A DNA stretch of 64,000 nt, from IMG/VR virus record IMGVR_UViG_3300025131_000005; one strand, 5' to 3'. Position numbers and translations under genes: made by a program. This DNA is from a virus. Below, one piece after another: positions 27,865-44,503 of the stretch. A model generated the notes under the pieces. That model was not told the origin of the DNA. It saw only the letters and a program-made list of their open reading frames with translations, and ran no database searches. Each line of letters starts with the position of its first letter. Position 1 is the stretch's first letter.

Positions 27865-28615
27865 TGGATGCATTGACAAATATCATTTTGGTCAATGCGA
27901 AAGACTATCACCAGAAGCACCGGTACCAGTTTTCAAATTGATGAGAACCAAACCAATGCCAGGAATGGCTTTGAATGTAGAGAAGAATTTGTCTGCTTTT
28001 GGTATTAATGTAGATACCATCAGTAATGAGGGTAAACTGATTACAAAAGAAAGATTCATCGATGAAAAATCCGGGCAACAACTTTTGCGTTTAGATACCG
28101 GTGAAAATGAATTATTAGATCCTATAGATGTAGAGGATATTGACTTAAATCTATACGACTGTGTTGTGGTTTCGGATTACAATAAGGGTATTTTAGATTA
28201 TCACAATTGTTCTCTCTTGGCGAAGAAGTGTATACAAGAAAATAAATTTTTATTTGTGGATAGCAAGAAAAAGGATTTAAGTTGTTTCGAGGGAGCAATA
28301 ATAAAAATTAATAAAAGAGAAAAGGAATTAGTTGAAAATTTTCCTATTAAATATGATATAATTATAACTCATGGAGAGCAGGGTGCTACATGGGATGGTT
28401 TACATTTCCCCTCGGATCCTACCGAAGTATTTGATGTATCTGGAGCGGGAGATACTTTCTTTGCCGCTCTTGTAAGCGAGTATTTGGTATCTAAAAATAT
28501 AGCTACTTCTATAGTATTTGCTAATAAATGCGCGGCCCTTACCGTCAAAAAAATTGGAGTATATTCACCAACACAGACAGAAATAAAGGATATTAAAAAT
28601 GGTTTATGTGGTTGA
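27818..28615 (+). CDS. hldA: HldE/RfaE domain I-like PfkB sugar kinase
   Basis: RLSPEAPVPV, SDYNKG, DVSGAGDT. Confidence 0.85.
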   Translation: MGTQQQNSYKILLLGDGCIDKYHFGQCERLSPEAPVPVFKLMRTKPMPGMALNVEKNLSAFGINVDTISNEGKLITKERFIDEKSGQQLLRLDTGENELLDPIDVEDIDLNLYDCVVVSDYNKGILDYHNCSLLAKKCIQENKFLFVDSKKKDLSCFEGAIIKINKREKELVENFPIKYDIIITHGEQGATWDGLHFPSDPTEVFDVSGAGDTFFAALVSEYLVSKNIATSIVFANKCAALTVKKIGVYSPTQTEIKDIKNGLCG

Positions 28616-28940
28616 TATCGATGGTACTATATGTACTTTGAGTAAAGATTTAACTTATACAGATTCGAAACCTCTTAAAGAGAGAATTGAAAAACTTAAT
28701 AAACTACACGACGAGGGTCATACTATAATTTACCACACAGCTCGTGGGATGGGTCGTAACAACAATATACGCTCCTTGGCTGAAGCTAAGTTTTATCTTT
28801 TTACCGTTAAACAACTTAAAGGATGGGGATGCAAGTATCACCGAATCTTTTTAGGCAAACCTGCTGGCGATATTTATATTGATGATAAAGCAATGAAAGA
28901 TGGAGAGTTTTTTGAAGATCGCGATGACATTTGTCCCTAA
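28599..28940 (+). CDS. Minimal HAD phosphatase
   Basis: VDIDGTIC, HTARG, GKP..DIYIDD. Confidence 0.8.
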   Translation: MVYVVDIDGTICTLSKDLTYTDSKPLKERIEKLNKLHDEGHTIIYHTARGMGRNNNIRSLAEAKFYLFTVKQLKGWGCKYHRIFLGKPAGDIYIDDKAMKDGEFFEDRDDICP

Positions 28941-29265
28941 AGGATGGGGATTTGAAAAATGGATTGTTAACTGTGACAAATATTGTGGAAAATTACTTTA
29001 TTTCGTAAAAGGAAAAAAGTGTTCATGGCATTATCATAAAATAAAAGATGAAGTTTTTTATGTACAAAGCGGTAAAATTATGGTAAAGTATTCGTATAAT
29101 GATGATCTTTCCAAGGCACGCAAAATTATTCTTGAAGCGGGAGATAATTTTCATGTTGCCGTGGGCATGAGACACCAAATGATAGCACTACAAGATACTG
29201 AATTATTTGAGTTTTCTACTCAACATTTTGATGAAGATAGCTATCGGATTGTGAAAGGAGACTGA
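28924..29265 (+). CDS. Cupin protein (sugar isomerase/epimerase-like)
   Basis: PKGWGFE, HYHKIKDE.FYV.SG, RHQM. Confidence 0.8.
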   Translation: MTFVPKGWGFEKWIVNCDKYCGKLLYFVKGKKCSWHYHKIKDEVFYVQSGKIMVKYSYNDDLSKARKIILEAGDNFHVAVGMRHQMIALQDTELFEFSTQHFDEDSYRIVKGD

Positions 29266-30059: not shown

Positions 30060-30860
30060 ATGAAAATTGCATTTATATCATATATTTTTGGCAACGACCA
30101 CGCCGTTGTTAATTTTGGAACCTTCAAGATGATGAGTTCTTTCAAACGTTTTCATCCGGATATTCCTCTCTATATGCTTACAGAGAAAGAGATTAACAAA
30201 GAGGCACAAACAGTAGTTCCGATGAGTATGACTTATTTAAATCCTCTAATGACGCGTACAATCGCTGATGATTATGACCTTGTGGTTCATATCGATACCG
30301 ATGTTGTGGTAACGGATCGCTTAGATGAAATTCTAGAGGGCGATTATGATGTTGCGGTGGGACGCAATAATGCGGATCAAAGAACTGCAGGATGTGGCAC
30401 TCCTCACACTCTAAATGGAGAAGTAGACGTTTTTAAATATGCAAATGCGGGAATTGTAGCATCTACTAAAAAGGAATTTTGGGATGATTGGGTTGAATTA
30501 AATCAAAAGAATTTTAATAAATATCCTATGCATGAACAAGACAATTTAAATATTTTGATTAATTCAGGTAAATATAAAGTTAAATGGTTAGATCCACCGG
30601 AAAAATCGCTATATTATAATATTGCTAGTGCCTATGGAGATCCCAAGTGGAATGGTCAGTGGGACAAACACTGGGAAAGTTGGGAAAGAATTGAACTTAA
30701 AGATGATAAATTGTGGCTCGATGGAAAACTGATAAAGATGTTACATTATGCCGGGGGGAATACGCCCGATAAATTTAATCTTACGAGGCATTTTTCTGAT
30801 GAAGTCACAGAGCATATTAAAAAGCTTTGTAATATACCAAAGAAATTTAAAGGAGAATAA
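30060..30860 (+). CDS. GT-A glycosyltransferase (GT8-like)
   Basis: HIDTD (DxD), NAGIV, EQDNLN, LHYAG. Confidence 0.8.
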   Translation: MKIAFISYIFGNDHAVVNFGTFKMMSSFKRFHPDIPLYMLTEKEINKEAQTVVPMSMTYLNPLMTRTIADDYDLVVHIDTDVVVTDRLDEILEGDYDVAVGRNNADQRTAGCGTPHTLNGEVDVFKYANAGIVASTKKEFWDDWVELNQKNFNKYPMHEQDNLNILINSGKYKVKWLDPPEKSLYYNIASAYGDPKWNGQWDKHWESWERIELKDDKLWLDGKLIKMLHYAGGNTPDKFNLTRHFSDEVTEHIKKLCNIPKKFKGE

Positions 30861-30862
30861 AA
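30659..30862 (+). repeat. 204-bp perfect direct repeat, copy 1 (3' end of GT8 gene plus RBS)
   Basis: Identical by eye to 31914-32117 (offset 1255). Confidence 0.95.
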
Positions 30863-30864
30863 AG

Positions 30865-31806
30865 ATGACTGTTTATGATTTCTGTCCATTTTTAGACGAA
30901 AACGATCTATATGAACTTAGGTTAAACCAGCATTGGAATTTTGTTGATAAATTTATTGTAGTGGAAGCTTCAGAAACACACACTGGACACGCAAAACCTT
31001 TTAACTTTGATCAAAAAAGATTTGAAAAATATTCTGAAAAACTCATATATGTTCAAATTGATTTTCATGACGCGTTCACGAGTAACGATTTTTTAGATAG
31101 TTTTACAAATTTTGATGAAAGACCACCTGAGTGGATTAGAGATAACTATCAAGGAAATTATTTTACTAAAATTTTAAAAGATTTAGGCGCGCAAGATGAC
31201 GATATAATTTATGCTAGTTCTTTAGATGAGATAATTAGAGAAGAAGCTTTTTATGAATCTTTGCGTATTTTTAAAAACACAAAAAATATCAAATTTGCAT
31301 TGCAAACCCCTCCTAATCACCCGCCCCATCTTGTGCAATATTGGCATCATAATCAAAATGTTTTTTTTCCAAACAAGGTAAGTCGTCCTATAATGGGCTT
31401 TCATATGGAGTGGTTTGTATATAAGTTTAATTTAACATCTCACATACGTTGCCCCATGGGCAATATTACAGAATATTCAACTTATAAACAAATCTTACCA
31501 GCAACGATGAGACACATGGCTCTTTCGACACACCCGCCAATTGGCACAACTGAAAAGCCTGCAGGGTGGCATTTTACTTTTTTAGATGACACAAATGGAG
31601 ATAAAATTATAAAAAAACTAGATTCTTATGCGCATCATGTCGATTATATGCCCGAGTATTTAAACCTCGATAAACACGATGTAACACTAAAGATGCTTAG
31701 AAAACACAGAGCAAAGAAAAAACCGCTGACATTTCCTGATTTTCCATCTTATTTAATTGACAACTTAGATAAATTTAAAAATTATATCTTCGAAGGCAGC
31801 ACTTAA
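30865..31806 (+). CDS. GT17-like glycosyltransferase, paralog a
   Basis: MTVYDFCPF..E...ELRL, VEASETHTG, RDNYQ, GWHFTF; AGGAG RBS. Confidence 0.8.
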   Translation: MTVYDFCPFLDENDLYELRLNQHWNFVDKFIVVEASETHTGHAKPFNFDQKRFEKYSEKLIYVQIDFHDAFTSNDFLDSFTNFDERPPEWIRDNYQGNYFTKILKDLGAQDDDIIYASSLDEIIREEAFYESLRIFKNTKNIKFALQTPPNHPPHLVQYWHHNQNVFFPNKVSRPIMGFHMEWFVYKFNLTSHIRCPMGNITEYSTYKQILPATMRHMALSTHPPIGTTEKPAGWHFTFLDDTNGDKIIKKLDSYAHHVDYMPEYLNLDKHDVTLKMLRKHRAKKKPLTFPDFPSYLIDNLDKFKNYIFEGST

Positions 31807-31807
31807 A

Positions 31808-31987
31808 ATGGCTGTTTACGATTGCTTTCCTTTTTTCAACGAAAATGATTTATTAGAACTAAGGTTAAATCAACATTGGAATTACGTAGACAAATTTATT
31901 ATCACTGAAGCCGGTGGGACAAACACTGGGAAAGTTGGGAAAGAATTGAACTTAAAGATGATAAATTGTGGCTCGATGGAAAACTGA
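31808..31987 (+). pseudogene. Truncated GT17-like paralog b fused out of frame to the duplicated GT8 segment
   Basis: 36 codons MAVYDCFPFFNENDLLELRLNQHWNYVDKFIITEAG run into repeat copy 2 and stop at 31985-31987. Confidence 0.85.
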
Positions 31988-32117
31988 TAAAGATGTTACA
32001 TTATGCCGGGGGGAATACGCCCGATAAATTTAATCTTACGAGGCATTTTTCTGATGAAGTCACAGAGCATATTAAAAAGCTTTGTAATATACCAAAGAAA
32101 TTTAAAGGAGAATAAAA
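31914..32117 (+). repeat. 204-bp perfect direct repeat, copy 2
   Basis: Identical by eye to 30659-30862. Confidence 0.95.
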
Positions 32118-32818
32118 TGAAGGTACAGAAACAAATGGAGAGTATTAATTATGAATTTGGAGGTGATTTATTTATTGACGTCGGCGCTAACGTCGGCATG
32201 TGGGTTAAGGAGCTGGGGTATCTTTATGGCAGAATCATATGTATAGAGCCGAGTCAAGAGGCTTTTAAACTACTCAGATCTGCAACGGAATACAAATATG
32301 GAGATAAGACAACTTATATAAATAAAGCTGGTTGGTCCGAGAGTAATTTAAGATTAGATTTAGCAGCTGGGGGACACGATACTGGAAATTTTACAGTTTT
32401 TGGAGAAAAATTGATAAAACCAGAAAATATAATCAAACGTGATACATGCACTACCATGACTATAGATGAATTACTTGACGAGGTGAAGGACGAAGAAAAA
32501 GATATTCTAATTAAAATAGATACAGAGGGAGCAGATTGGGAAATCCTTGACGGCGCGAGAGATTTTATCAAGGCACACAGGCCAACGATTGCTTTGGAGA
32601 ATCATTTTCATATGCATTATGATAAAGAAAAATATTATTCATTGATTTCTTTTTTTCATGAACAAAATTATAATATAATTGAATTTAAGAATACCGACTA
32701 TCTTGAGTCCTACAATCACCAACGAATTTTTGGCGGTGACCGGGATTATACGGGAGCAGAGATGTATGACAAACATTACCAAATGATATTTGAACCAAAA
32801 AAGTTTTTAGGTGAGTAG
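32117..32818 (+). CDS. FkbM-family SAM-dependent methyltransferase
   Basis: FIDVGANVG, IEP, TIDE, IKIDTEGADWEIL; uses the RBS supplied by repeat copy 2. Confidence 0.85.
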   Translation: MKVQKQMESINYEFGGDLFIDVGANVGMWVKELGYLYGRIICIEPSQEAFKLLRSATEYKYGDKTTYINKAGWSESNLRLDLAAGGHDTGNFTVFGEKLIKPENIIKRDTCTTMTIDELLDEVKDEEKDILIKIDTEGADWEILDGARDFIKAHRPTIALENHFHMHYDKEKYYSLISFFHEQNYNIIEFKNTDYLESYNHQRIFGGDRDYTGAEMYDKHYQMIFEPKKFLGE

Positions 32819-32825
32819 GTGAATA

Positions 32826-33755
32826 ATGGCAGTATATGATTGTTTCCCCTTCTTTAACGAAAATGATTTACTTGAGATAAGATTAAATCAACATTGGGAT
32901 TATGTAGATAAATTTATTGTTACAGAGGCAGGAGAGACCCATACCGGCTTGAAGAAACCATTTAATTTTGATCATGAACGATTCAAAAAGTATGACTCAA
33001 AAATAATTTACCATCAAATTAAAGATTTTAGAAAAGAAATTCAAGAAGTTGGCGCGGAGGTATTAGATAATTATAGCCTTCGTGACCGCAGCCAAAATGG
33101 GCAGTTTACAGATGATTGGGTAAGAGATCATTTTCAAGGAAACTATCCAGTAAAAATCTTAAAAGAATTAGGAGCCAAAGATACGGATATAACTTATTTC
33201 AGTGCTGTAGATGAAATTTTGAGTGATCAAGGTTTTAAAGAAGGAATAGCTCGTTTTGTAAACAAAGATGAGATGTACGAACTAAAAAGTGGTGGTGAAA
33301 AGGTACATAGTCAAAATAATCAACCTGTACTTATAAGACCAACTTTTGGATTTTTTTTGGATACGTATGTGTACAAATTCAATTTATTTTGTAAGAAAAT
33401 TTCTGTGGCACAAATGACTGAATTTTCTGTTCTTAAGCAAATGTTACCATCAACTATGAGAGGCATGTCTATGGGTACACATCCTAGTGTTGATAATGCC
33501 GGGTGGCATTTTACTTTTATGGATAATACGGATGGTGATAGGGTCCTTCAAAAACAAAAAAGCTGGGCACACTCCAGAGATGTCATTCCCGGTCAAAAAG
33601 TTAAGTTTACACATACAACAAAAAAAGAGGCGTTGGAGAGACTATTTGAGGATCTTAAAGTCACCAAAGTCCCTATAACTGAACAATCACATCCCAAATA
33701 TTTGATTGATAATTTAGAGAAATACAAAGACTACATATGTGAAGAAAAAGGTTGA
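32826..33755 (+). CDS. GT17-like glycosyltransferase, paralog c
   Basis: MAVYDCFPFFNE, TEAGETHTG, RDHFQ, GWHFTF. Confidence 0.8.
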   Translation: MAVYDCFPFFNENDLLEIRLNQHWDYVDKFIVTEAGETHTGLKKPFNFDHERFKKYDSKIIYHQIKDFRKEIQEVGAEVLDNYSLRDRSQNGQFTDDWVRDHFQGNYPVKILKELGAKDTDITYFSAVDEILSDQGFKEGIARFVNKDEMYELKSGGEKVHSQNNQPVLIRPTFGFFLDTYVYKFNLFCKKISVAQMTEFSVLKQMLPSTMRGMSMGTHPSVDNAGWHFTFMDNTDGDRVLQKQKSWAHSRDVIPGQKVKFTHTTKKEALERLFEDLKVTKVPITEQSHPKYLIDNLEKYKDYICEEKG

Positions 33756-33802: not shown

Positions 33803-35323
33803 ATGGAGAAACAAATGACAAGAATGTTTGAGAAATTATTTATTTTTGAGTTTGCTAATAATCATATGGGTGATGTTGAACATGGACTCAAGATGATACG
33901 TGAATTCGCTAAGGTGAAAGAACCATACAAAGAATTTGATTTTGCAGTAAAATTTCAATTTCGTAATATAGACACGTTTATTCATCCGGATTATAAAGAT
34001 CGTATGGATTTAAAATACGTAAAAAGATTTTCTGAAACTCGTCTTACATCTGAAGAATTTGCTTTATTGAAAACAGAAGCAGAAAAACATGGTTTTATTT
34101 CAATGTGCACAGGTTTCGATGAAGACTCTATTTCTTTAATTGAAGATATGGATTTTTCAATCATCAAGATTGCCAGCTGTTCTTTTACTGATTGGCCACT
34201 CCTTAACAGGATTGCTGAGACCGACATGCCAATTATTGCTTCAACTGCTGGCTCTTCTTTAGAAGATATTGATAACGTGGTCTCATTTTTTACGCATCGC
34301 AAGAAGGATTTGACCATTATGCATTGCGTTGGCGAATATCCAACAGCAACAACAAATTTACAACTTAATCAAATTTCTCTTTTGAAAAATAGATATCCTA
34401 ATATTCGAATAGGTTATTCTACTCATGAGGATCCAGGTAATCCAAACATTATACCTCTAGCTATAGCACAGGGCGCTGAAGTTTTTGAAAAACATGTAGC
34501 GGTTGAAACAGAAGAGTATGCGAAAAATGCTTATTCTTCAACCCCTGGTCAAGTAAAATCCTGGCTGCACTCCGCTAGGACAGCTTACGAAATTTCGGGT
34601 GATATTGCTGGACGACCACCAGCATCCGAAAAAGAGCTTGCCGATTTGAGGAGATTCAAGCGTGGAGTTTTCGCGAAAAGAGACATTAAGAAGAATGAAG
34701 TAGTAGAAAGAAAGGATGTCTTTTATGCTTTTCCTTGTGAAGAAGGACAAGTTTTAGCAAATGACATGTCTAAATACACACAATTCACAGCAGAAAAGGA
34801 TTTTAAGATTAATGAATCTATTTCTTTTAACAATGTACAACAAAATAATTTAAGAGAAGGGGTATATGATATTGTACAAAATGTAAAATCATTTTTATCG
34901 GAATCAAATGTTGTATATCCTGGAGAAGCAGAGTTAGAAATTTCTCATCATTATGGAATCGATCACTTCTACGAGGTTGGGATCACAATGATCACCGTAG
35001 TAAACCGTGAATATTGTAAGAAATTAATTATCGCTTTACCGGGACAATCTCATCCGGAGCAATACCATGAAAAGAAGGGAGAAACGTTTGTTATTCTTTA
35101 TGGTGATGTTGATCTTTCTTTGGACGGAGAATCGCAACGTCTTGTAAAGGGAGATGTTGTGACGATTGAACCAGGAGTTAGGCATAAATTTAAGACTTTG
35201 AATGGTTGTGTTATTGAAGAGGTTTCATCAACACACTATAAAGATGATTCTTTTTATACAGATAAAGAAATCACTAACAATAAGAATCGAAAAACTTTTA
35301 TTACACATTGGATAGGAGCATAG
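33803..35323 (+). CDS. neuB: NeuB/SpsE-family nonulosonic acid synthase with SAF domain and C-terminal cupin
   Basis: FEFANNHMG, AVKFQ, IKIAS, MHCVGEYP, GYSTHE, FEKH; C-terminal HPEQYHEKKGETF...RH. Confidence 0.88.
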   Translation: MEKQMTRMFEKLFIFEFANNHMGDVEHGLKMIREFAKVKEPYKEFDFAVKFQFRNIDTFIHPDYKDRMDLKYVKRFSETRLTSEEFALLKTEAEKHGFISMCTGFDEDSISLIEDMDFSIIKIASCSFTDWPLLNRIAETDMPIIASTAGSSLEDIDNVVSFFTHRKKDLTIMHCVGEYPTATTNLQLNQISLLKNRYPNIRIGYSTHEDPGNPNIIPLAIAQGAEVFEKHVAVETEEYAKNAYSSTPGQVKSWLHSARTAYEISGDIAGRPPASEKELADLRRFKRGVFAKRDIKKNEVVERKDVFYAFPCEEGQVLANDMSKYTQFTAEKDFKINESISFNNVQQNNLREGVYDIVQNVKSFLSESNVVYPGEAELEISHHYGIDHFYEVGITMITVVNREYCKKLIIALPGQSHPEQYHEKKGETFVILYGDVDLSLDGESQRLVKGDVVTIEPGVRHKFKTLNGCVIEEVSSTHYKDDSFYTDKEITNNKNRKTFITHWIGA

Positions 35324-35325
35324 AA

Positions 35326-35844
35326 ATGAGTGAAGAAACGATTACAGAAAGTGGACTAAAGATAACTGTTTTACAAGAAGGCACAGGCGAGGCTCCCAAA
35401 AGCGGGCAAACTGTACTAATGCATTATGAGCTTTGGGCATCCCCCGGCGCGACATCTTCAGATTATGATTATGAAAATAAAAAGTACATCGATAGTATTT
35501 CTTATAGCACTTATGATGAGAGAAATCCTTTTAGCGGTCCAATCCAAATTACTATCGGTAAGCAGACTCCAAAAGATGAAATATATTCCAAAGGAGACTC
35601 GATTGGGGGTCTAGACGAAGCACTTCTTTCGATGAAGGTGGGTGCCAAGTGTTCTCTTTTAATTCCACCACATTTGGGATATGGTCCAGAAGGAGCAAGT
35701 AGCTTTCATTCATTTCATGGTTTTGTGACACCTCCAAGTCAACCTGTGCGTTGTAATATAGAATTGGTGAGTATAATTGATGCTCAAGAGTCAAATAAAA
35801 GATCGATAGAGGATCAGCCTGAAAATGTAGCCTACGAGGGTTAA
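35326..35844 (+). CDS. FKBP-type peptidyl-prolyl isomerase with loop insertion
   Basis: EGTG..PKSGQTV..HY, IGGLDEALLSMKVG, LIPPHLGYG, IEL. Confidence 0.8.
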   Translation: MSEETITESGLKITVLQEGTGEAPKSGQTVLMHYELWASPGATSSDYDYENKKYIDSISYSTYDERNPFSGPIQITIGKQTPKDEIYSKGDSIGGLDEALLSMKVGAKCSLLIPPHLGYGPEGASSFHSFHGFVTPPSQPVRCNIELVSIIDAQESNKRSIEDQPENVAYEG

Positions 35845-37626
35845 ATGAAAGTAGTCGAATATGTTGCATCTTTCTTGGAAGATCGCGGCATTAAAAATAT
35901 TTTTATGCTTTCGGGTGGATTCTGTTTGCCCCTGGTTGACGCTATAGCAGATAGTAATATTAATTATGTCTGTAATTTGCACGAACAAGCAGCTGCAATC
36001 TGTGCAGAAGCCCATGCACAATATACAAATTTACCTGGAGTCTGTATAGTTACTGCCGGTCCTGGAAGCACTAATACACTTACAGGCGTTGCTTCCGCAT
36101 GGTTGGATTCAATTCCAATGATTATCTTATCCGGACAAGTTCAGCGTAAAGATATCAAAGGAACCAGAAAGGTAAGACAAATAGGATTCCAAGAAATAGA
36201 TATAGTTTCGGTAGTTAAAAACATAACAAAATGTGCATTAACTGTACTCGATCCACAAAATATCAAATGTATTATGGAATCTGCATGGCATGAAGCCACA
36301 ACTGGTCGCCCTGGTCCTGTTTGGATTGATATACCGCTTGATATACAATCGGCTCAAATTAATGTAGAAAATTTGAGATCTTTTAAGCCAGAATTAAAAA
36401 CTGATAAAAGTGTAGAATTAAAGGAAAAAGTTGCACAATTTTATGAATTAATCAACGCTTCAAAAAGACCGATTTTGTTAGTAGGAAATGGTGTTAGATT
36501 AGCTAATTCTAAAGACAAGTTTTTAAAATTAATCGAGAAGCTAAATATACCTATTTTGACAACTTGGAAATCGATTGATTTTTTGAGTGAGGATCATCCT
36601 CTTTACGCGGGCAGACCAGGATTGATTGGCCAACGAGGTGCAAATTTTTCACAGCAGAATTCGGATCTCTTTATCTCCATCGGCGCACGCCTCGATTTTG
36701 GTCAAACGGCTTTTAACCATAAAAACTTCGCCAGAAAAGCTAAAAAAATTATTATCGATATTGATGAAGCCGAAATCGATAAAATGGAATTCGATATTGA
36801 CTGTCCAATTAATTTTGATGCGAAAGAATTTTTAGAAGAAGCCCTTAACCAGATTGATAAAAAAGAAAAGGACTTTCCGGAATGGTTATCAATCTGCAAA
36901 AATTGGCATGAGCGATATCCTGTTATCTTGAAAGAGTATTGGGAGCAAAAAGAATGTGTCAATAATTACGTTCTAATCGACGCGCTATCACAAACCATGG
37001 TATCGGGAGACTTACTGATCCCTGGCTCTTCAGGAGCCTCTAGCGAGGTCACTATGCAGGCTTTTAAAGTAAAGGACGGTACCCGAATCTTTAACAGTGA
37101 GGGGTTAGGATCGATGGGTTTTGGTGTACCTGCAGCCATTGGGGGATGTATTGCTAGTGATCGCCGCAGAACCGTCTGTGTTGACGGTGATGGAGGCTTT
37201 ATAATGAATATACAGGAATTGGAGACCGTCAGGAGACTTAATTTGCCGATTAAATATTTTGTACTTAATAATGGGGGCTACGCTTCAATTCGAAATTCGC
37301 AAGGCAGGCATTTTGACAAAGAGGTCGCAAGTGGAGAAAATAGTGGTGTAACGCTGCCTGATATTGAAAAAATTAGTCATTCCTATGGAATAAAATATCA
37401 TAAGTTATCAGATCACAAAAATATAGTCGCAAATGTTCAAACAATTTTAGATGAACCAGGACCGGCAATATGTGAGGTGGTGATGCTCCATACTCATGAG
37501 AGTATGCCAAGAAACTCTACCTACAAAAAAGAAGACGGTACTTTTGTCTCACTTCCTATGGAAGATCTGCTTCCTCTCTTGCCACGGGATGAGTTTGAGG
37601 CAAATATGAGCGTTAGTGATGACTAA
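35845..37626 (+). CDS. ThDP-dependent acetolactate-synthase-like enzyme (YerE-like candidate)
   Basis: LHEQAA..AEA, TAGPG.TN, GRPGPV..DIP, GSMGFG, DGDGGF...NN. Confidence 0.88.
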   Translation: MKVVEYVASFLEDRGIKNIFMLSGGFCLPLVDAIADSNINYVCNLHEQAAAICAEAHAQYTNLPGVCIVTAGPGSTNTLTGVASAWLDSIPMIILSGQVQRKDIKGTRKVRQIGFQEIDIVSVVKNITKCALTVLDPQNIKCIMESAWHEATTGRPGPVWIDIPLDIQSAQINVENLRSFKPELKTDKSVELKEKVAQFYELINASKRPILLVGNGVRLANSKDKFLKLIEKLNIPILTTWKSIDFLSEDHPLYAGRPGLIGQRGANFSQQNSDLFISIGARLDFGQTAFNHKNFARKAKKIIIDIDEAEIDKMEFDIDCPINFDAKEFLEEALNQIDKKEKDFPEWLSICKNWHERYPVILKEYWEQKECVNNYVLIDALSQTMVSGDLLIPGSSGASSEVTMQAFKVKDGTRIFNSEGLGSMGFGVPAAIGGCIASDRRRTVCVDGDGGFIMNIQELETVRRLNLPIKYFVLNNGGYASIRNSQGRHFDKEVASGENSGVTLPDIEKISHSYGIKYHKLSDHKNIVANVQTILDEPGPAICEVVMLHTHESMPRNSTYKKEDGTFVSLPMEDLLPLLPRDEFEANMSVSDD

Positions 37627-38521
37627 GAAAATCCTCATTACGGGAGGAAATGGTTTCATAGGCAGAAGCTTGTATGAATTTCTAAGTGACCAATATTTCT
37701 TTCCTCTTGGCAAGAATATTTATTGTCTAGGACGACAAGAATTGGATTTGCTCGATAGTCAGAAAGTGTATGATTTTATCCGAGAACATAAATTTGACGT
37801 AGTGATCCATGCTGCAACTTACGATGCGGTACCTGAATTTACCACCAAAGACACGACAAAAGTTTTGGAATACAATTTAAAGATGTTTTTCAATATTGCG
37901 CGCTGCAAAGAATATTTTGGTAAAATGATATATTTTGGCTCTGGTTCCGAAGCAGGGCGAGAGAATTTCATACCAACTATGACGGAAGAATATATTGAGA
38001 GGAACGTTCCGGAAGACCAGTATGCTTTTTCTAAGCATGTTTCTAATGAATACGCTCAGCTTAGCGACAACATCTATAATTTAAGAATTTTTGGATTATT
38101 TGGTAAATATGATGACTGGAGGTATCGCTTTATCTCCAATGCTTGCTGTAAAGCTGTACTAAACAAGCCTGTTATCATAAATCAGGACGTCATGTTTGAT
38201 TATGTCTATATAAATGATTTTGCAGAGATTGTTAGATGGTTTATAGAAAACAGTCCGGAACGCAAATCTTTTAATATTTGTTCTGGACACCGCTGCAGTT
38301 ATTATTCATTAGCCAAGAAGATTGTTTCGGCATCTTCAAAGGATCTTGAGATCATAACAAAGAAAGAGGGACTACGTAAAGAATATAGTGGCAACAATAT
38401 GCTTTTGAAAAATACGATAAAAGATTTCAAGTTTACGTCCACAAAAGATGCGATAAAAGAGCTTTACAACTGGTATGACGATCATAGAGATCTTATCGAT
38501 GAAGATCTTTTGCTTTACTAA
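37616..38521 (+). CDS. Extended SDR NDP-sugar epimerase/reductase
   Basis: ITGGNGFIG, YAFSK (YxxxK). Confidence 0.85.
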   Translation: MMTKKILITGGNGFIGRSLYEFLSDQYFFPLGKNIYCLGRQELDLLDSQKVYDFIREHKFDVVIHAATYDAVPEFTTKDTTKVLEYNLKMFFNIARCKEYFGKMIYFGSGSEAGRENFIPTMTEEYIERNVPEDQYAFSKHVSNEYAQLSDNIYNLRIFGLFGKYDDWRYRFISNACCKAVLNKPVIINQDVMFDYVYINDFAEIVRWFIENSPERKSFNICSGHRCSYYSLAKKIVSASSKDLEIITKKEGLRKEYSGNNMLLKNTIKDFKFTSTKDAIKELYNWYDDHRDLIDEDLLLY

Positions 38522-38532
38522 CAGAGATTATT

Positions 38533-39039
38533 ATGAGAGAGGAATCATTAAAAGTTTTAGAGAAAGAAATTTCTCTCTACAGAGACAGGTTTCCGGATAA
38601 TGGATTGCCGGAAGATATATTTTTTTTCACTAGCAGGATTACCCCTATTGTCAATGTAGACCTTCTGATACAGGACGAAGACAAAAGAACGCTTCTGGCC
38701 TGGAGGAATAGTTTTGAGTGGGAAGGAGAAGGGTGGCACATACCTGGCGGGATTGTGAGGTACAAGGAAGGGTTTGAAGATCGTTTACTTAAGGTATCTG
38801 AAATGGAAATTGGTACTCAAGTTGAGTTTGAAAAGGCACCCATTGCCCTTAATGAGGTGATATTACCACAAGAGACACGAGGACATTTTGTATCAATCTT
38901 ATACAAATGTTTTCTCAGCCGCGATTTCGTTCTCAGCAATAGCGGAGTTAATTGCCACCAAGAGGGATACTTGAAATGGCACGAAGGGGCACCCACAAAT
39001 CTGCTGAAGTGCCAAGATATATATAGGAAGCATTTTTAA
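38533..39039 (+). CDS. Nudix hydrolase, GDP-mannose mannosyl hydrolase-like
   Basis: VDLLIQD, WHIPGGIV..E, degenerate Nudix box. Confidence 0.7.
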   Translation: MREESLKVLEKEISLYRDRFPDNGLPEDIFFFTSRITPIVNVDLLIQDEDKRTLLAWRNSFEWEGEGWHIPGGIVRYKEGFEDRLLKVSEMEIGTQVEFEKAPIALNEVILPQETRGHFVSILYKCFLSRDFVLSNSGVNCHQEGYLKWHEGAPTNLLKCQDIYRKHF

Positions 39040-39049
39040 GGAAATAATT

Positions 39050-40183
39050 ATGTCCATTGATAGATGCCGAGTTTGTGGTAATAAATTGGAATTACTATTA
39101 TCATACGAAAATATGCCCAAAGCCGCTCAACATATGCCTAATATGCTCGAAAGACTTGCAGAAAGGGGGGTGGATTTAGAAGTCCATCAATGTAAGGGTT
39201 GTGGACTAGCTCAATTAAATAATGAGCCGGTTCCGTATTATAAAGAAGTCATTAGGGCTGCAGCTTTTTCCGAGGAAATGAGAAGCTTCAGAATTAAACA
39301 ATTTGAAAATTTTGTTAACAAGTACTCTCTTCAAGATAAGAAAGTTATCGAGATAGGATGCGGCAAAGGAGAATTTCTTTCCTTGATGAAAGACGCCGGT
39401 ACCAATGCGTATGGTATAGAGTATGCTGATGATTCGGTAAATCTCTGTAATGATAATGGATTGGAGGTGTCAAAGTTTTATATTGATAGCGAAGATGATA
39501 TTTTACCAGCTGCTCCTTACGATTGTTTTTTTATAATGAATTTCTTTGAGCATTTACCGGATCCAAATACGACTCTTAGGGCTCTACATACTAATTTAGC
39601 GGACGACGGTATTGGTATTATTGAGGTGCCGAATTTTGATATGATAATAAAGAAAAAACTATTTTCTGAATTCATCGGTGATCATCTATTTTATTTCACT
39701 AAAGAGACCTTATGTAATACTTTAGCGAAGAATGGTTTTGAAGTATTAGAGTGTAGTGAAATATGGTATGATTATATAATTTCCGTGGTTGTGAGAAAGA
39801 GAGAAAAATTAGATATAACGAATTTCTACGATCATCAAGTAAAGATAAAAAAGGAAATAGAGGATTTTATCAACCACCACGCCGGGTTTGTGGCTATATA
39901 TGGAGCTGGACACCAATCATTTGCTGTTATCTCGATGACCAAAATCGCAAATAAAATAAAATATGTTGTTGATGATGCTCCATTCAAGCAAGGAAAATAC
40001 ACTCCAGCAACTCATATACCAATAGTTTCCAATAAACATTTAAAAAACGATCCAGTGGATGCTATAATCGTTATGGCTGCTAGCTATTCAGACGAAGTGG
40101 CTAGAAAGATAAAACAGAATTTCAATGAAGACATATCTATAGCTATATTGAGAGATTTTGGATTAGAGGAAATTAATGAGTAA
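39050..40183 (+). CDS. NDP-sugar C-methyltransferase-like SAM-dependent protein
   Basis: N-terminal CRVCG...CKGCG..QL, VIEIGCGKG, FEH, IEVPN, IYGAG, VVDDAP.KQG. Confidence 0.8.
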   Translation: MSIDRCRVCGNKLELLLSYENMPKAAQHMPNMLERLAERGVDLEVHQCKGCGLAQLNNEPVPYYKEVIRAAAFSEEMRSFRIKQFENFVNKYSLQDKKVIEIGCGKGEFLSLMKDAGTNAYGIEYADDSVNLCNDNGLEVSKFYIDSEDDILPAAPYDCFFIMNFFEHLPDPNTTLRALHTNLADDGIGIIEVPNFDMIIKKKLFSEFIGDHLFYFTKETLCNTLAKNGFEVLECSEIWYDYIISVVVRKREKLDITNFYDHQVKIKKEIEDFINHHAGFVAIYGAGHQSFAVISMTKIANKIKYVVDDAPFKQGKYTPATHIPIVSNKHLKNDPVDAIIVMAASYSDEVARKIKQNFNEDISIAILRDFGLEEINE

Positions 40184-40592
40184 AAAGAAGAAAGAATTTG
40201 TATCAAATGTTACTGGTGAAGAATGGTTCAAACACAATTCACAAAAATGGGATAGGGTTATTAAGCAGATTGGACTAACTATAGAAGATGAAGTTCATCA
40301 GGGAAAAAAGGGCACAACGGTAACTTTGAAAAAAGGGAGTAAGGTAATTATTGATGATATTAGGGGAAGAATTAAACCTCAATATAGAGTAAGAGATATT
40401 AACGGAAAGATATGGTTTGTGTCGGCTTTAAATGTACAGATTTTAGAAGATGAAGGTGGTAAACCAGATATAACTAAACATAAATATCGAGGAGGTGTCC
40501 GCCATGACGGAAGTAAGGCGTCACCATATCGATATGAAGTTGAAAAAACAACTGAAGAAGAACTAGAAGATATAAGGAGTAACAATGGCTAA
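40176..40592 (+). CDS. Hypothetical protein (small beta-barrel possible)
   Basis: Co-oriented ORF overlapping both neighbours. Confidence 0.55.
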   Translation: MSKKKKEFVSNVTGEEWFKHNSQKWDRVIKQIGLTIEDEVHQGKKGTTVTLKKGSKVIIDDIRGRIKPQYRVRDINGKIWFVSALNVQILEDEGGKPDITKHKYRGGVRHDGSKASPYRYEVEKTTEEELEDIRSNNG

Positions 40593-41916
40593 TTCACACG
40601 ATACAATGTTTCAAACCCCTCTGGAAGGAAACAAACATGACCACACATTACCTTGGAACGAAGAGCAATTAAGGGCTCTCGCAGAAGGTAAGATAATGCA
40701 GAGTACCACAGTTAAAGATGAAAATCTACGCCAAAATTGGCTGAAATCACATAAGCCTCTGGTATATGATAAAATGATGAGATACCCAGAAAAAATTGCA
40801 ATGGGAGAAAGCATAGCAATTATACAATTTCAATATGATTATTTATGTAATTTTGATTGCGAACACTGCTGCATCGACAAATTTTATGTTCCCAAAGCTT
40901 GGGAAAAGGCGTCCGGACGACGAAAATTTGAGTTAGAAGACGTAAGGCGTCTTTCTCAAGAAGCCGATGCAATGGGCTTGGCTAATTTTGTTATCACCGG
41001 AGGAGAGCCTCTTCTACTAAAAGAATATGATAAATTAGTAGAAGCCATTGACCCCAGTAAGTTTTATTTAGTTACGGATTCAAATGGATGGTTTCTGGAC
41101 AAGAAGAGGGCCAAGCATTTAAAGGCAATTGGTGTGGATAAGGTTCAATTGAGTCTAGATGGTGCCGATGCAGAAAGTCATGACACGTTCCGTCGAGCCC
41201 CCGGTTCATTTGATCGTGTAATGAAAGCGATTGATGCTTGTAAAGAAGCTGATCTCCATGTTATTTTGTCTACTGTCATCTGGAAAGATAGAATTTATAC
41301 TGAAGAGTGGAGAACTTTCTTAGATCATGCCAAAGAAAAACAAGTTGGAACATACATTGTATATGCTAAACCCGTGGGTGCCTATGAAGGTGTTACCGAA
41401 CAGATGATGACAGAGAAAGAAGGAAAGATACTGCAGCAGTTTGAGGAAGAATATGATATTTTCACTCATATGACACCTTCATATGGTAGAGATATCGGGT
41501 GTATCGCAGTTAAGAGAATGGTACCTATTTCCCGCTATGGAGATGTTATGCCATGTCCTTACCAGCATGTTTCTCTTGGAAACTTTTTCGAAGAACCACT
41601 CGCAGATATTATTGGCAGAGGTCTTAATATTAAATGGTTTGATCCTAAAAAGAATATGCCCTGTATCTGTGGTGTCGATAAAGGTTTTATTGAAGATGTC
41701 ATTTCAGAATCTTATGGTGACTCAGAAGTACCGGTGAGATATGATAAGGTTTTTACTTCCGATGATTTTATCAAGAAAGATAACATGGGTGATGTGAGAG
41801 CCAATAGCGGCACCGGCAAGGAAGTGGAGACGTGGAAAAACTCTCCTTTGATCACTATCAAGGGTAAGGATCTTAAAGAATTTGATCCTATAGCAGATTC
41901 CATTAAAGGTGCTTAG
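40585..41916 (+). CDS. Radical SAM protein with SPASM/twitch-like C-terminus
   Basis: CNFDCEHC, ITGGEPLL, QLSLDG, H..FR, DVMPCP, C..C. Confidence 0.88.
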   Translation: MANSHDTMFQTPLEGNKHDHTLPWNEEQLRALAEGKIMQSTTVKDENLRQNWLKSHKPLVYDKMMRYPEKIAMGESIAIIQFQYDYLCNFDCEHCCIDKFYVPKAWEKASGRRKFELEDVRRLSQEADAMGLANFVITGGEPLLLKEYDKLVEAIDPSKFYLVTDSNGWFLDKKRAKHLKAIGVDKVQLSLDGADAESHDTFRRAPGSFDRVMKAIDACKEADLHVILSTVIWKDRIYTEEWRTFLDHAKEKQVGTYIVYAKPVGAYEGVTEQMMTEKEGKILQQFEEEYDIFTHMTPSYGRDIGCIAVKRMVPISRYGDVMPCPYQHVSLGNFFEEPLADIIGRGLNIKWFDPKKNMPCICGVDKGFIEDVISESYGDSEVPVRYDKVFTSDDFIKKDNMGDVRANSGTGKEVETWKNSPLITIKGKDLKEFDPIADSIKGA

Positions 41917-42300
41917 GTGATTACCATCACTAAAAGTGCTTTAAAGAGATTTAAAGAAGTTGCTGATTCTAATGATTTTATTAGAATAGGCGTCGTCGGC
42001 GGCGGCTGCGCCGGACTTACTTATAATATTGAAATAGAAGAGAGAGCTGACGAAGATGATATTTTGATCGAATTAGAAGGTGTCAATATATGTATTGATC
42101 GGAATAGCTCCTTTATGTTGAGTGAAACGACTGTAAACTATATAGAAACAATGCAACAATCTGGTTTTAGGTTTGATAATCCTCAAGCCGCCAGTAGTTG
42201 TGGTTGTGGAACATCTTTTAGTCCGAAGGAAGATCCTTCTATCGATTCTTCTATCCCTCTCGCGGGAGGCTGTTCAACTGGTGGTTGCCCCTCTAGTTGA
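41917..42300 (+). CDS. iscA: HesB/IscA/ErpA A-type Fe-S carrier
   Basis: GGCAGLTY, NP, SCGCGTSF; extra C-terminal GGCSTGGC. Confidence 0.88.
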   Translation: MITITKSALKRFKEVADSNDFIRIGVVGGGCAGLTYNIEIEERADEDDILIELEGVNICIDRNSSFMLSETTVNYIETMQQSGFRFDNPQAASSCGCGTSFSPKEDPSIDSSIPLAGGCSTGGCPSS

Positions 42301-42401
42301 CACTACCGCAGATATTAAAAAATTTTCTTAAAAATACTCTAGAATGATGATATAGTAAGGTATATTATCATGTGGTATATTTTAAGGATCAGAGGTACAT
42401 A

Positions 42402-43553
42402 ATGGCTAGAAAGAAGGTTTGGTATGCCCCTAATGGTTTCGAGGCATATGGCGAAGAAGAAATCAAGGCTGTCGAAGAATGTCTAAGGGACGGCTGGCTC
42501 GCCGGCTTTGGTAAGAGGACCGTAGAATTTGAAGAAAAAGTTGCCAAGCTTTTTGGCAAGAAGCATGGAGTCTTTGTGAATTCTGGATCTTCTGCTAACT
42601 TAATAGCACTCGGCAGCTTGGCTCTTCCACGCGGCAGTGAGGTTGTAACTCCTGCGTGTACCTTCTCTACAACCGTTGCCCCTATACTACAATTGGGCTG
42701 TGTTCCTGTCTTTTGCGATGTTGAGCTTGATAAATATGTACCGAGTGTACGAAGTGTATTGGAAAAGATCACCTCCAAAACCAGAGTTATTATGCTTCCT
42801 AATTTGGTGGGTAATAAACCCGATTGGGCCCGACTTAAGCAGGAATTAGGTAACATTGGAAGAACCGATATTGTTTTAATTGAAGATTCTTGTGATACCA
42901 TAACTTTCACTGGCGAAACCGACATATCGACGACTAGTTTTTATGCCAGCCATATAATCACTGCTGGAGGCTCTGGCGGAATGGCTATGTTCAACAGTGG
43001 GGAACAGCTTGATATTGCACTTCAGCTTAGAGATTGGGGACGTATTGGCAATAATTCTGAGTTTATTGATGAGCGCTTCAACCATCAAGTTGATGGGATA
43101 TTATACGATTTCAAATTTCTATACGGGGTAGTGGGCTATAATTTTAAATCTTCGGAAATGAATTCAGCATTTGGTTTAGCTCAATTAAAAAAGTTTGATA
43201 AATTCCGTAAAATAAGAAGGGAAAACATAGAAAGATATTTGCATAACTTGGAAGATATTGAAGAAATTGTATTACCGGATGATAGTATTAAGCCGAATTG
43301 GTTGGCAATCCCCCTTCAGACGGAGAATAGATTAGATCTTTTGAGATTTTTAGAGAAAAACGATATTCAAACAAGAGTTACTTTTGCTGGAAATATCACC
43401 CGTCATCCTGCTTATAGAGAATATCTACAAGAGTTTTCTAATTCTGATATCATTATGAGAGATGGGTTTTTATTGGGAGCACACCATGGTATGACGCTGG
43501 AAGATGTAGATTACGTATGTAATAAAATAAAAGGATTTTTCGGAAGGTATTAA
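42402..43553 (+). CDS. PMP-dependent NDP-4-keto-6-deoxyhexose 3-dehydratase (RfbH/ColD-like; DegT fold)
   Basis: VNSGSSANL, EDSCD, and SFYASHIIT with His at the site where aminotransferases have Lys. Confidence 0.8.
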   Translation: MARKKVWYAPNGFEAYGEEEIKAVEECLRDGWLAGFGKRTVEFEEKVAKLFGKKHGVFVNSGSSANLIALGSLALPRGSEVVTPACTFSTTVAPILQLGCVPVFCDVELDKYVPSVRSVLEKITSKTRVIMLPNLVGNKPDWARLKQELGNIGRTDIVLIEDSCDTITFTGETDISTTSFYASHIITAGGSGGMAMFNSGEQLDIALQLRDWGRIGNNSEFIDERFNHQVDGILYDFKFLYGVVGYNFKSSEMNSAFGLAQLKKFDKFRKIRRENIERYLHNLEDIEEIVLPDDSIKPNWLAIPLQTENRLDLLRFLEKNDIQTRVTFAGNITRHPAYREYLQEFSNSDIIMRDGFLLGAHHGMTLEDVDYVCNKIKGFFGRY

Positions 43554-44503
43554 TGAAAATTGTTATTATAACAGGTTGTTTGGGATTTATGGGTTCTTAT
43601 TTGACGCGTAAAGCATTGAAACTAGGATGGCAAGTGCGAGGAATTGATAAATTAACGTATGCTGCGAATCCCGATCTTTTAACAGAATTTAATGAATATG
43701 AAAATTTTCATTTCGAACGCCGCGATATTAAAAATGTTAAACGTCTTTATGATTGTGACTATATTATAAATTTTGCCGCTGAATCACATGTAGGTAATAG
43801 TATTATCAACAGTGATGAGTTTATTAATAGTAATATATTGGGGGTTAAAAATCTTTTAGATTTGACGAGATTTAAACCTGTTAATTGCAATGAGAAGCCA
43901 GTAATGTTTCATATCAGTACAGATGAAGTTTATGGTGATATTACAAAAGGTGCACATAAGGAATCAGATATTTTGAAACCTAGTAATCCTTATTCGGCTG
44001 CAAAAGCGGGAGGTGATATGCTTATTCATGCATGGGCTAGAACTTATGGTATTAAATATATTATTTTGCGCCCAACGAATAATTATGGTATTGGACAATA
44101 TCCAGAAAAACTCATTCCTCTGGCAGTGAAGAATTTGACTAGGGGTAGAGAGATCAAGCTTCACGATGGAGGTATTCCTACACGCAATTGGTTGCATGCA
44201 GCTGATACGGCTGAAGCAGTGATTTCTATTATTGATTCTGGCAATGTTAACCAAATTTATAATGTAGCCGGAGGATTTGAGCAATCGAACGCAGAAACTG
44301 TAAGAAAGATCATAGAGGCATACTATGGTACCGATGACAATTGGGAACAATATGTGGACTTTGACACTTTTCGCAAAGGACAAGATATTCGCTATGCCTT
44401 AAATGATAGAAAATTAAAGAATCTTGGTTGGAAACCAAAAAAGAATTTTGATAAAGAAATAAAGAATATTGTAGAATATTACAAGAATAATTTTATATGG
44501 TAA
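43553..44503 (+). CDS. rfbB: NDP-glucose 4,6-dehydratase (RmlB-like)
   Basis: DKLTYA, FAAESHV, ISTDEVYG, PSNPYSAAK, NNYG..QYPEKLIP. Confidence 0.88.
   Translation: MKIVIITGCLGFMGSYLTRKALKLGWQVRGIDKLTYAANPDLLTEFNEYENFHFERRDIKNVKRLYDCDYIINFAAESHVGNSIINSDEFINSNILGVKNLLDLTRFKPVNCNEKPVMFHISTDEVYGDITKGAHKESDILKPSNPYSAAKAGGDMLIHAWARTYGIKYIILRPTNNYGIGQYPEKLIPLAVKNLTRGREIKLHDGGIPTRNWLHAADTAEAVISIIDSGNVNQIYNVAGGFEQSNAETVRKIIEAYYGTDDNWEQYVDFDTFRKGQDIRYALNDRKLKNLGWKPKKNFDKEIKNIVEYYKNNFIW

Follow-up and report, generated by a model that had tools for sequence, protein, structure and literature searches.

The 64,000 nucleotide stretch of viral DNA analysed here (IMG/VR record IMGVR_UViG_3300025131_000005, hereafter the window) comes from a large marine T4-like tailed phage, and contains on its plus strand an island of sugar genes (23986-44503) which ends in a module of eleven genes resembling those for branched 3,6-dideoxysugars. 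A gp6-like baseplate wedge gene (60012-61817; PHROG 219) finds its closest cultured relatives, at 30-33% identity, in Microcystis phage Mel-JY01 and the Flavobacterium "immuto" phages; a megablast search with the region gave no match to cultured phages. A PhoH-PIN gene is located at 20991-22304. The identical ThDP protein is encoded on a contig of ca. 184 kb.

Gene content of the sugar island

The island begins with two GT4 glycosyltransferase genes, followed by a CTP_transf_like/PfkB/HAD/cupin block, two GT17-like genes placed around an FkbM methyltransferase gene, and the module itself (Table 1). Nine co-directional genes which overlap or almost touch occupy 35845-44503. The NeuB-cupin and FKBP genes immediately upstream, which the initial annotation had not linked to them, are part of the same conserved module and bring it to eleven. 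The spacing along the module from 33803 to 44503 is -16, 0, -11, 11, 10, -8, -8, 0, 101 and -1 nt; since all of the junctions but the 101 nt gap before the E1-like gene are overlaps or at most 11 nt, the arrangement fits a single transcription unit. The five products named in the initial annotation, a thiamine diphosphate (ThDP) enzyme, a short-chain dehydrogenase/reductase (SDR), a C-methyltransferase, a DegT-fold enzyme of the His type and a 4,6-dehydratase, are all present as judged by domains and motifs. Four further genes lie among them, specifying a Gmm-like Nudix protein, a 138-amino acid protein, a radical-SAM/SPASM enzyme and IscA. The cofactor-binding and catalytic motifs are preserved in all module enzymes checked, and the module is intact, conserved and real.

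Table 1. Genes of the module and a small phosphatase gene located upstream of it
Product	Position	Strand	Supporting matches
NeuB-family synthase with C-terminal cupin	33803..35323	+	Pfam NeuB 4.3e-43, Cupin_2 1e-10, Lyx_isomer 1e-5
FKBP-type (SlyD-like) peptidyl-prolyl isomerase	35308..35844	+	PF00254 4.5e-11
Predicted YerE-like ThDP carboligase, acetolactate synthase fold	35845..37626	+	TPP_enzyme_N, M and C, each E ~1e-33 to 1e-35
Extended SDR, proposed YerF-like reductase	37616..38521	+	PF01370 4.6e-26, RmlD_sub_bind 3e-13
Nudix-fold, GDP-mannose mannosyl hydrolase (Gmm)-like	38533..39039	+	NF011963 2.7e-6, PF00293 5e-4, both below cut-off
Nucleoside diphosphate (NDP)-4-keto-sugar C-methyltransferase, TcaB9/TylC3 type	39050..40183	+	PF08421, PF13489, PF08484 (Methyltransf_13, _23, _14)
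138-amino acid protein	40176..40592	+	no Pfam or NCBIfam family
Radical-SAM/SPASM enzyme	40585..41916	+	PF04055 1.7e-22, SPASM 4.6e-5
IscA/HesB-type Fe-S assembly protein	41917..42300	+	TIGR00049 104.5 bits, cut-off 58.8
Predicted E1-like, pyridoxamine phosphate (PMP)-dependent NDP-4-keto-6-deoxyhexose 3-dehydratase without [2Fe-2S] loop	42402..43553	+	RfbH model 268 bits
RmlB-like NDP-glucose 4,6-dehydratase	43553..44503	+	TIGR01181 294 bits
Small HAD phosphatase, perhaps acting with NeuB (uncertain)	28599..28940	+	DIDGT...IDD; TIGR01689 1e-10, below cut-off

The ThDP enzyme

The ThDP enzyme has the canonical GDG cofactor motif (VDGDGGF...NN) and an HEQ motif with the catalytic Glu. It falls below every equivalog cut-off for acetolactate synthase (ALS), the best being TIGR00118 with 399.8 bits against a required 538.35. 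The earlier observation that this ALS-like protein has no regulatory subunit or ilv genes nearby was borne out: neither an ilvN-like small subunit nor any other ilv gene was found in the annotated part of the window (ca. 20-46 kb). The gene is flanked by those for FKBP upstream and the SDR downstream, and the E1-like enzyme and 4,6-dehydratase are encoded alongside. Its top relative of solved structure is JanthE (8RPH), with 364 bits over residues 2-588, as against 274 bits for the best ALS.

A tree of 94 sequences was constructed with MAFFT and FastTree (LG+gamma) from the phage enzymes, their bacterial homologues, Salmonella IlvB, IlvG and IlvI, and Staphylococcus IlvB. The ThDP enzymes of the sugar clusters (ca. 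90) group in a single clade (support 0.93, on a stem of length 1.0) to the exclusion of the four genuine ALS. The window enzyme is found in a phage subclade (0.99) inside a bacterial clade of 84 tips (0.94) whose genes are linked to neuB. Its sequence relationships place the enzyme, we predict, with the sugar-branching YerE-like enzymes and not with acetolactate synthase.

Searches of phage and plasmid collections with the ThDP enzyme (tblastn) returned only genuine ALS at ca. 30-34% identity. The "phage" records carrying ALS include OR848815, OR845443, MG065691 and AFYI01000003, and much of this material looks like bacterial contigs filed as phage; on inspection one proved to be a Salmonella contig carrying ilvB-ilvN and another a Staphylococcus phage record in which ilvD-ilvB is present. 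Matches from this collection call for a check for DNA of bacterial origin.

Related bacterial and phage loci

A scan of species genomes yielded 80 bacterial loci with ThDP homologues of 46-58% identity, in Thermodesulfobacteriota, Chloroflexota, Verrucomicrobiota, Planctomycetota, Nitrospirota, Acidobacteriota, Bacillota, Bacteroidota, Cyanobacteria and others. All open reading frames (ORFs) of the related loci were clustered and the conserved families annotated, and counts were taken from the 41 bacterial loci whose 10-kb flanks are complete. NeuB is present in 38 of these, E1 in 36, an RfbF-like nucleotidyltransferase in 35, a HAD-like protein in 30, the radical-SAM enzyme in 20, Nudix in 17, the C-methyltransferase in 11 and an SDR of the window type in 7. 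By tblastn, 71 of 85 loci have neuB immediately before the ThDP gene, and none of the six phage or phage-like loci in the NeuB-linked clade lacks it.

Five IMG/VR phage loci have a common order: NeuB-cupin, FKBP, ThDP enzyme, SDR, C-methyltransferase, 138-amino acid protein, radical-SAM enzyme, IscA, E1, RmlB. The traits specific to the phage clusters are the RmlB-type dehydratase, an E1 lacking the iron-sulphur cluster, the absence of a nucleotidyltransferase and of an E3 reductase, and the addition of FKBP and IscA. One further locus, L006, is labelled Candidatus Woesearchaeota and carries GT4a, NeuB-cupin (79% identical), FKBP, ThDP, SDR, C-methyltransferase and 138-amino acid protein genes. 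Since its arrangement is that of the phages and its ThDP enzyme falls inside the phage subclade, L006 is probably a phage contig binned into a metagenome-assembled genome (MAG).

The deoxygenation pair

The DegT-fold enzyme probably starts at the ATG at 42402, which gives 383 amino acids as in its homologues. It reads SFYASH and EDSCD; the former aligns with SFYPAHH of E1 (3BCX), placing its His on the catalytic His of E1. This agrees with the view taken in the initial annotation that the exchange of the Schiff-base Lys for His marks a 3-dehydratase. The same source judged the enzyme, from EDSCD, to be more like ColD than E1, which holds for the missing Fe-S Cys loop but not for the overall sequence: E1 (3BCX/3BB8) scores 202 bits and ColD 130. 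The RfbH equivalog NF011936 gives 267.7 bits against a cut-off of 423. The [2Fe-2S] motif (C-X57-C-X-C-X7-C) is missing, the protein reading IGNNSEF after RDWGR, with no Cys and a 4-residue gap. As the 120 closest homologues (72-93% identical, metagenomic, Tara Oceans included) all possess SFYASH and none has the Cys loop, its loss is not decay. We regard the protein, from these features, as a 3-dehydratase homologue predicted to carry no Fe-S cluster.

In most of the 20 IMG/VR phage loci recovered, the cluster-less E1 gene is followed directly by the RmlB-like gene. A canonical Fe-S E1 (CYC...C), ca. 33% identical to the window protein, is found at the same position in the sister phages L001 (17926-19272), L002 (15906-17243) and L004 (16560-17918), which indicates that the two forms of E1 have replaced each other in place. 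E1-like 3-dehydratases have also been annotated in some cultured cyanophages, e.g. Synechococcus phage S-H68, their identity to the window protein being 34% or less.

The dehydratase scores 294.4 bits with TIGR01181 (cut-off 365.1), versus 86 with the CDP-glucose and 56.5 with the GDP-mannose model, and contains STDEVYG (catalytic TDE) and YSAAK (YxxxK). Because it is of the RmlB type the sugar is probably not CDP-linked, and the CDP carrier considered in the initial annotation is probably wrong.

Four IMG/VR loci (L101, L102, L103 and L105, two of them GVMAG contigs, labelled as giant-virus MAGs) contain a cluster-less E1-like gene of 63% identity. In L101, L102 and L105 a ThDP enzyme of 33% identity and an SDR are also encoded, on the opposite strand. 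Branched-sugar genes may be found in giant viruses too.

NeuB-cupin, phosphatases and the alternative aldolase

The best PDB match of the NeuB-cupin protein is 3G8R (364 bits), with NeuB, PseI and SiaC reaching only 60-99 bits. It lies below the equivalog cut-offs for NeuB_NnaB (146 versus 400 bits) and PseI (126 versus 340), and its NeuB domain is by these scores a distinct subfamily, a member of the family by fold and not an orthologue of a known synthase. The cupin part resembles the D-lyxose ketol-isomerase 2Y0O (5e-8). A CMP-ulosonate synthetase (CTP_transf_3) was not found in the window island or among the annotated conserved neighbour families. The NeuB-cupin protein probably works in one module with the ThDP enzyme, as the proposed maker of its keto-acid donor.

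In the bacterial loci one of two types of phosphatase usually lies between NeuB and the ThDP enzyme. The first is a 202-amino acid family with HAD motifs but no Pfam, NCBIfam or single-sequence PDB match, its assignment to HAD coming from the motifs and weak profile matches to HAD structures; comparison with single phage HAD sequences (hhalign) was not significant. The second, in loci with a stand-alone NeuB, is a KdsC-family phosphatase encoded directly before the ThDP gene, which scores 131 bits with TIGR01670 (cut-off 107) and 110 bits with the KDN-9-P phosphatase model. In L087/88 a homologue of the small HAD protein of the window is encoded immediately before NeuB-cupin; in L002 and L004 one lies close to NeuB-cupin. 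FKBP is found in L001-L006 and L087/88, where its identity is 46-63%, and not in the bacterial loci; it was considered as a phage counterpart of the 202-amino acid protein, which was ruled out as there is no similarity between them.

The nearest relative of the window, phage locus L086, shares the DegT-fold enzyme (93% identity), RmlB (86%) and both flanks of the island (48-92%), and has no NeuB. Between GT17 and DegT it carries a 40%-identical ThDP enzyme, a 275-amino acid protein, an 83-amino acid protein, a HAD-like protein and an SDR. Locus L090 contains, in another order, DegT, RmlB, a 256-amino acid counterpart of the 275-amino acid protein, HAD, ThDP and SDR genes. This 275-/256-amino acid protein matches Pfam HpcH/HpaI with 26.5 bits (cut-off 25). 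Its AF2 model (pLDDT 82) finds HpaI, HpcH, YfaU and malyl-CoA lyase as top Foldseek matches (probability 1.0, TM ~0.55); phmmer against the PDB gave no match with the L086 protein and the profile match is weak. By the Pfam score, the model and the fold matches it is a putative class II aldolase of the HpcH/HpaI type, for which the sequence evidence is weak. What recurs beside the gene pair for a 3,6-dideoxy-4-keto-sugar is a ThDP enzyme and an SDR accompanied by an aldol-type synthase and a phosphatase.

The block at 27463-29265 upstream of the module, made up of a CTP_transf_like nucleotidyltransferase, a PfkB kinase, the small HAD protein and a cupin, resembles an NDP-heptose route in which a cupin replaces GmhA. 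This stand-alone cupin is ca. 31% identical to that fused to NeuB, and the block is kept at 75-92% identity in L086.

SDR, methyltransferase and accessory genes

The SDR possesses GGNGFIG and YAFSK motifs and matches RmlD structures at 9e-11; its gene is next after the ThDP gene in the phage loci and in ca. 20 bacterial ones. The C-methyltransferase consists of an N-terminal Zn-ribbon (CxxC...CxxC), a class I methyltransferase domain and a C-methyltransferase C-terminal domain, its top PDB matches being TcaB9, KijD1 and mycarose 3-C-methyltransferase (4e-21). The Nudix box of the Gmm-like protein is degenerate. In bacteria the Nudix gene always accompanies the radical-SAM gene (24 of 24 loci, among the 80), and it is not present in the sister phages L001-L005. 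The radical-SAM/SPASM enzyme has the motif CNFDCEHC and weak relatives in BlsE, SkfB and MoaA; it is 77-82% identical in the sister phages and occurs in ca. 29 bacterial loci. The 138-amino acid ORF, the end of which overlaps the radical-SAM start by 8 nt, is conserved in seven phage or phage-like loci; a protein atlas search returned viral hypothetical proteins only (score 0.76). The iscA gene is found only in phage loci; a helper role in Fe-S loading and folding is plausible for IscA and FKBP.

Proposed pathway

A C4-branched 3,6-dideoxyhexose is the best reading of the module, as the initial annotation had also proposed; it is likely in view of the YerE-like ThDP enzyme, the E1-like enzyme, the SDR and the sugar C-methyltransferase. 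That annotation regarded the sugar as of the yersiniose type, i.e. with a two-carbon branch from pyruvate, which is probably not the case. The NeuB partner, mostly accompanied by a phosphatase, and the HpcH-type aldolase in a sibling phage point to a longer hydroxylated keto acid as the donor, as in erwiniose, caryophyllose and gastriose (PMC9306805). Our proposal, which we consider somewhat better than an even prospect, is that the operon makes an NDP-activated 3,6-dideoxyhexose with a carbon branch at C4 derived from the keto acid formed by NeuB. The families, motifs, synteny and phylogeny described above were computed, and from them we infer which substrates are used, in what order the steps follow, which nucleotide is the carrier and how long the branch is.

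The RmlB-like enzyme would convert NDP-glucose of the host, probably dTDP-glucose, to NDP-4-keto-6-deoxyglucose, from which the cluster-less E1-like PMP enzyme would remove the 3-hydroxyl to give NDP-4-keto-3,6-dideoxyglucose. By analogy with ColD, the enamine would be hydrolysed and PMP regenerated from glutamate, and an enzyme acting in this way would need no E3 reductase; no gene for E3 was found in the annotated part of the window. A carbon beside the 4-keto group may be methylated by the TcaB9-type C-methyltransferase. In parallel, NeuB-cupin would isomerize a ketose, probably a ketose phosphate, and condense the aldose with phosphoenolpyruvate (PEP) to a 3-deoxy-2-ulosonic acid, which a HAD phosphatase would dephosphorylate. 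The YerE-like ThDP enzyme would decarboxylate this keto acid and transfer the acyl-anion equivalent to the C4 ketone, and the SDR would reduce the new side-chain ketone. Further tailoring or support may come from the radical-SAM/SPASM enzyme together with the Nudix, IscA, FKBP and 138-amino acid proteins, and the nearby GT4 and GT17-like transferases would use the product. Such a convergent scheme, with the ulosonate consumed by the ThDP enzyme, would explain why a second nucleotide activation is not needed.

Comparison with known systems

The closest parallels are the long-branch clusters for erwiniose (ErwE/F/I/J, Pectobacterium atrosepticum), caryophyllose (MMAR_2331/2332, Mycobacterium marinum) and gastriose (MygE/F/I) (PMC9306805). 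In the scheme established by experiment for erwiniose and caryophyllose an aldolase produces a 4-hydroxy-2-oxo acid, which the ThDP enzyme couples to CDP-4-keto-3,6-dideoxyglucose before reduction by an SDR (PMC9306805). These clusters share with the window the combination of an aldol-type enzyme, a YerE-like ThDP carboligase, an NAD(P)H reductase and NDP-4-keto-3,6-dideoxyhexose genes, and L086 and L090 are like caryophyllose in their candidate aldolase of HpcH/HpaI fold, as MMAR_2331. The window differs in that its donor enzyme is a PEP-dependent synthase of the NeuB family with a cupin instead of a pyruvate aldolase, in its RmlB-type rather than CDP-glucose-type dehydratase, in the cluster-less E1 and in lacking a nucleotidyltransferase and E3. 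It adds a C-methyltransferase, radical-SAM/SPASM, Nudix, IscA and FKBP, and is carried by a phage.

Yersiniose A of Yersinia pseudotuberculosis O:VI (DdhA-D, YerE, YerF) involves the same sequence of 4,6-dehydration, His-type C3 deoxygenation, ThDP-dependent C4 branching and SDR reduction. The window, however, has no DdhA or DdhD (E3), an RmlB-like enzyme in place of DdhB and a cluster-less form in place of DdhC, and pyruvate is probably not its donor. JanthE of Janthinobacterium sp. HH01 (8RPH/8RPI/8RPJ), the best solved relative of the ThDP enzyme, joins C3-C6 2-oxo acids including 4-hydroxy-2-oxovalerate to ketones (PMC12188165, PMC12247030). Its ThDP motif is CDG whereas that of the window enzyme is GDG, and by score it is outside the NeuB-linked subclade.

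The E1-like enzyme shares with both ColD and E1 the His in place of the Schiff-base Lys; like ColD it has no cluster, while in its EDxCD motif and overall sequence it resembles E1. It differs from E1 in lacking three or four of the cluster cysteines, and from both in being partnered by an RmlB-type dehydratase, not one for CDP- or GDP-sugars. On the donor side there is a likeness to KDN/KDO-type synthesis, such as the KDN-9-P synthase and phosphatase of Bacteroides, in the NeuB-family synthase with its isomerase-like cupin and in the KdsC-family phosphatase of related loci. The difference is that the window has no CMP-ulosonate synthetase, and the ulosonate is proposed as a ThDP substrate instead of being CMP-activated.

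Alternative explanations

Several points weigh against the proposed pathway. Because PpYerE (5AHK; 270 bits) scores no better than the best ALS (274 bits), the YerE-like label rests on JanthE, the tree and the gene context. A phylogeny against YerE and IlvB had been suggested in the initial annotation. The tree provides the separation from the four genuine ALS but not the comparison with YerE, as YerE, ErwE, MMAR_2332, JanthE and PpYerE stood outside it and were compared via PDB scores and papers. We know of no characterized enzyme in the NeuB-linked ThDP subclade, and of no glycan structure tied to such a cluster. No HAD gene is located beside NeuB in the window, the only one (28599-28940) lying in the heptose-type kinase/nucleotidyltransferase block, which together with its HAD is also kept in L086, a phage without NeuB. 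Turnover of the cluster-less E1 in the manner of ColD is only proposed, by analogy. A search for an RfbF- or RmlA-like nucleotidyltransferase for a hexose drew a blank in the window and returned nothing beyond short, weak matches in the phage loci; the starting NDP-glucose must, we infer, come from the host, and in the phages with an Fe-S E1 the reducing electrons would also be host-derived. Finally, the proposed route does not account for the Nudix protein, the radical-SAM enzyme and the 138-amino acid protein.

A plain yersiniose-type pathway, in which the ThDP enzyme attaches a C2 branch from pyruvate, the SDR reduces it and NeuB-cupin belongs to a separate ulosonic-acid pathway sharing the island, is in our judgement unlikely. 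All four core enzymes are present and, since JanthE and YerE accept pyruvate (PMC9306805, PMC12247030), a two-carbon branch is conceivable; the lack of a HAD gene beside NeuB in the window fits it as well. Against it stand the near-constant company of NeuB (38 of the 41 fully flanked bacterial loci and 6 of 6 phage or phage-like loci of the clade), the CMP-ulosonate synthetase that a separate pathway would need, which was found neither in the window nor among the annotated conserved neighbour families, and the sibling phages which exchange NeuB for an aldolase, still alongside the ThDP gene. Moreover pyruvate is rejected by ErwE, whose partner is an aldolase (PMC9306805).

Improbable, in our estimation, is a linear, nonulosonate-like route: the Nudix protein would free the dideoxyhexose, NeuB would condense it with PEP to a deoxy-nonulosonic acid, and the ThDP enzyme would decarboxylate or process this acid without any branching. 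The succession of dehydratase, DegT-fold enzyme, hydrolase and NeuB does recall the legionaminic and pseudaminic acid routes, a Gmm-like Nudix protein is at hand, and the upstream kinase and nucleotidyltransferase could re-activate a free sugar. However, NeuB, the ThDP enzyme and E1 persist where Nudix does not (it is present in 24 of the 80 bacterial loci and absent in L001-L005). The KdsC/HAD phosphatases between NeuB and the ThDP enzyme point to a phosphorylated aldose of central metabolism, not a free dideoxyhexose, and the nearest characterized relatives of the ThDP enzyme are ketone-accepting carboligases. A phage-borne acetolactate synthase serving as an auxiliary gene for branched-chain amino acids, suggested by the ALS fold and cofactor motifs and by the name "acetolactate synthase large subunit" given to the homologues in metagenome sources, is very improbable in view of the failed equivalog cut-offs, the lack of a small subunit or other ilv gene in the annotated stretch, the long branch from genuine ALS and the sugar-gene setting in ca. 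90 loci.

Implications

The initial annotation knew of no such pathway in a phage; in the literature searched we likewise found no phage branched-sugar pathway of this kind and no NeuB-type donor synthase described. To our knowledge acyl-branched sugars have so far come only from bacterial surface glycans and antibiotics. A wider proposal, which we advance tentatively and rate at somewhat less than even, is that an undescribed higher-carbon sugar is made both by T4-like phages of the sea and by bacteria from more than ten phyla. In it a 3-deoxy-2-ulosonic acid, supplied by an enzyme resembling sialic acid synthase, would be decarboxylated by the ThDP enzyme and grafted to C4 of an NDP-4-keto-3,6-dideoxyhexose. 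In the phages the acceptor would be formed by a dTDP-type dehydratase and cluster-free E1, a radical-SAM/SPASM enzyme would remodel the product, and the donor module (NeuB versus HpcH-type aldolase) would be swapped in a hypervariable island next to the baseplate genes.

The labels "acetolactate synthase", "sialic acid synthase" and "aminotransferase" in ocean viromes suggest auxiliary genes of amino-acid and sialic-acid metabolism, where taken together they may represent one glycan pathway. Were a phage to make an acyl-branched sugar from a swappable island by its baseplate genes, it would be of interest whether the sugar coats the virion, the surface of the host or some other structure. The island suggests that phages diversify acyl-branched sugar chemistry, and exchange of modules, if our proposal is true, would diversify a phage-made glycan. 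The NeuB-linked subclade would widen the donor range of the ThDP carboligases, which are used in biocatalysis for tertiary alcohols. A cluster-less E1 with an RmlB-type dehydratase would give access to 3,6-dideoxyhexoses on a different nucleotide without a reductase, and would, again if true, be a new nucleotide and cofactor solution for C3 deoxygenation.

Other features of the window

A perfect 207-nt direct repeat (30659-30865 and 31914-32120) brackets one of the GT17-like genes. The two GT17-like genes, at 30748-31806 and 32826-33755, have several repeat segments of 72-78% identity in common, and the repeats look like a recent cassette duplication or recombination scar in the sugar island. 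Outside the island, two adjacent ORFs of 962 amino acids each (11072-13960 and 13972-16860) have no Pfam or PHROG match, and a 3131-amino acid ORF (50138-59533) lies upstream of the baseplate wedge gene.

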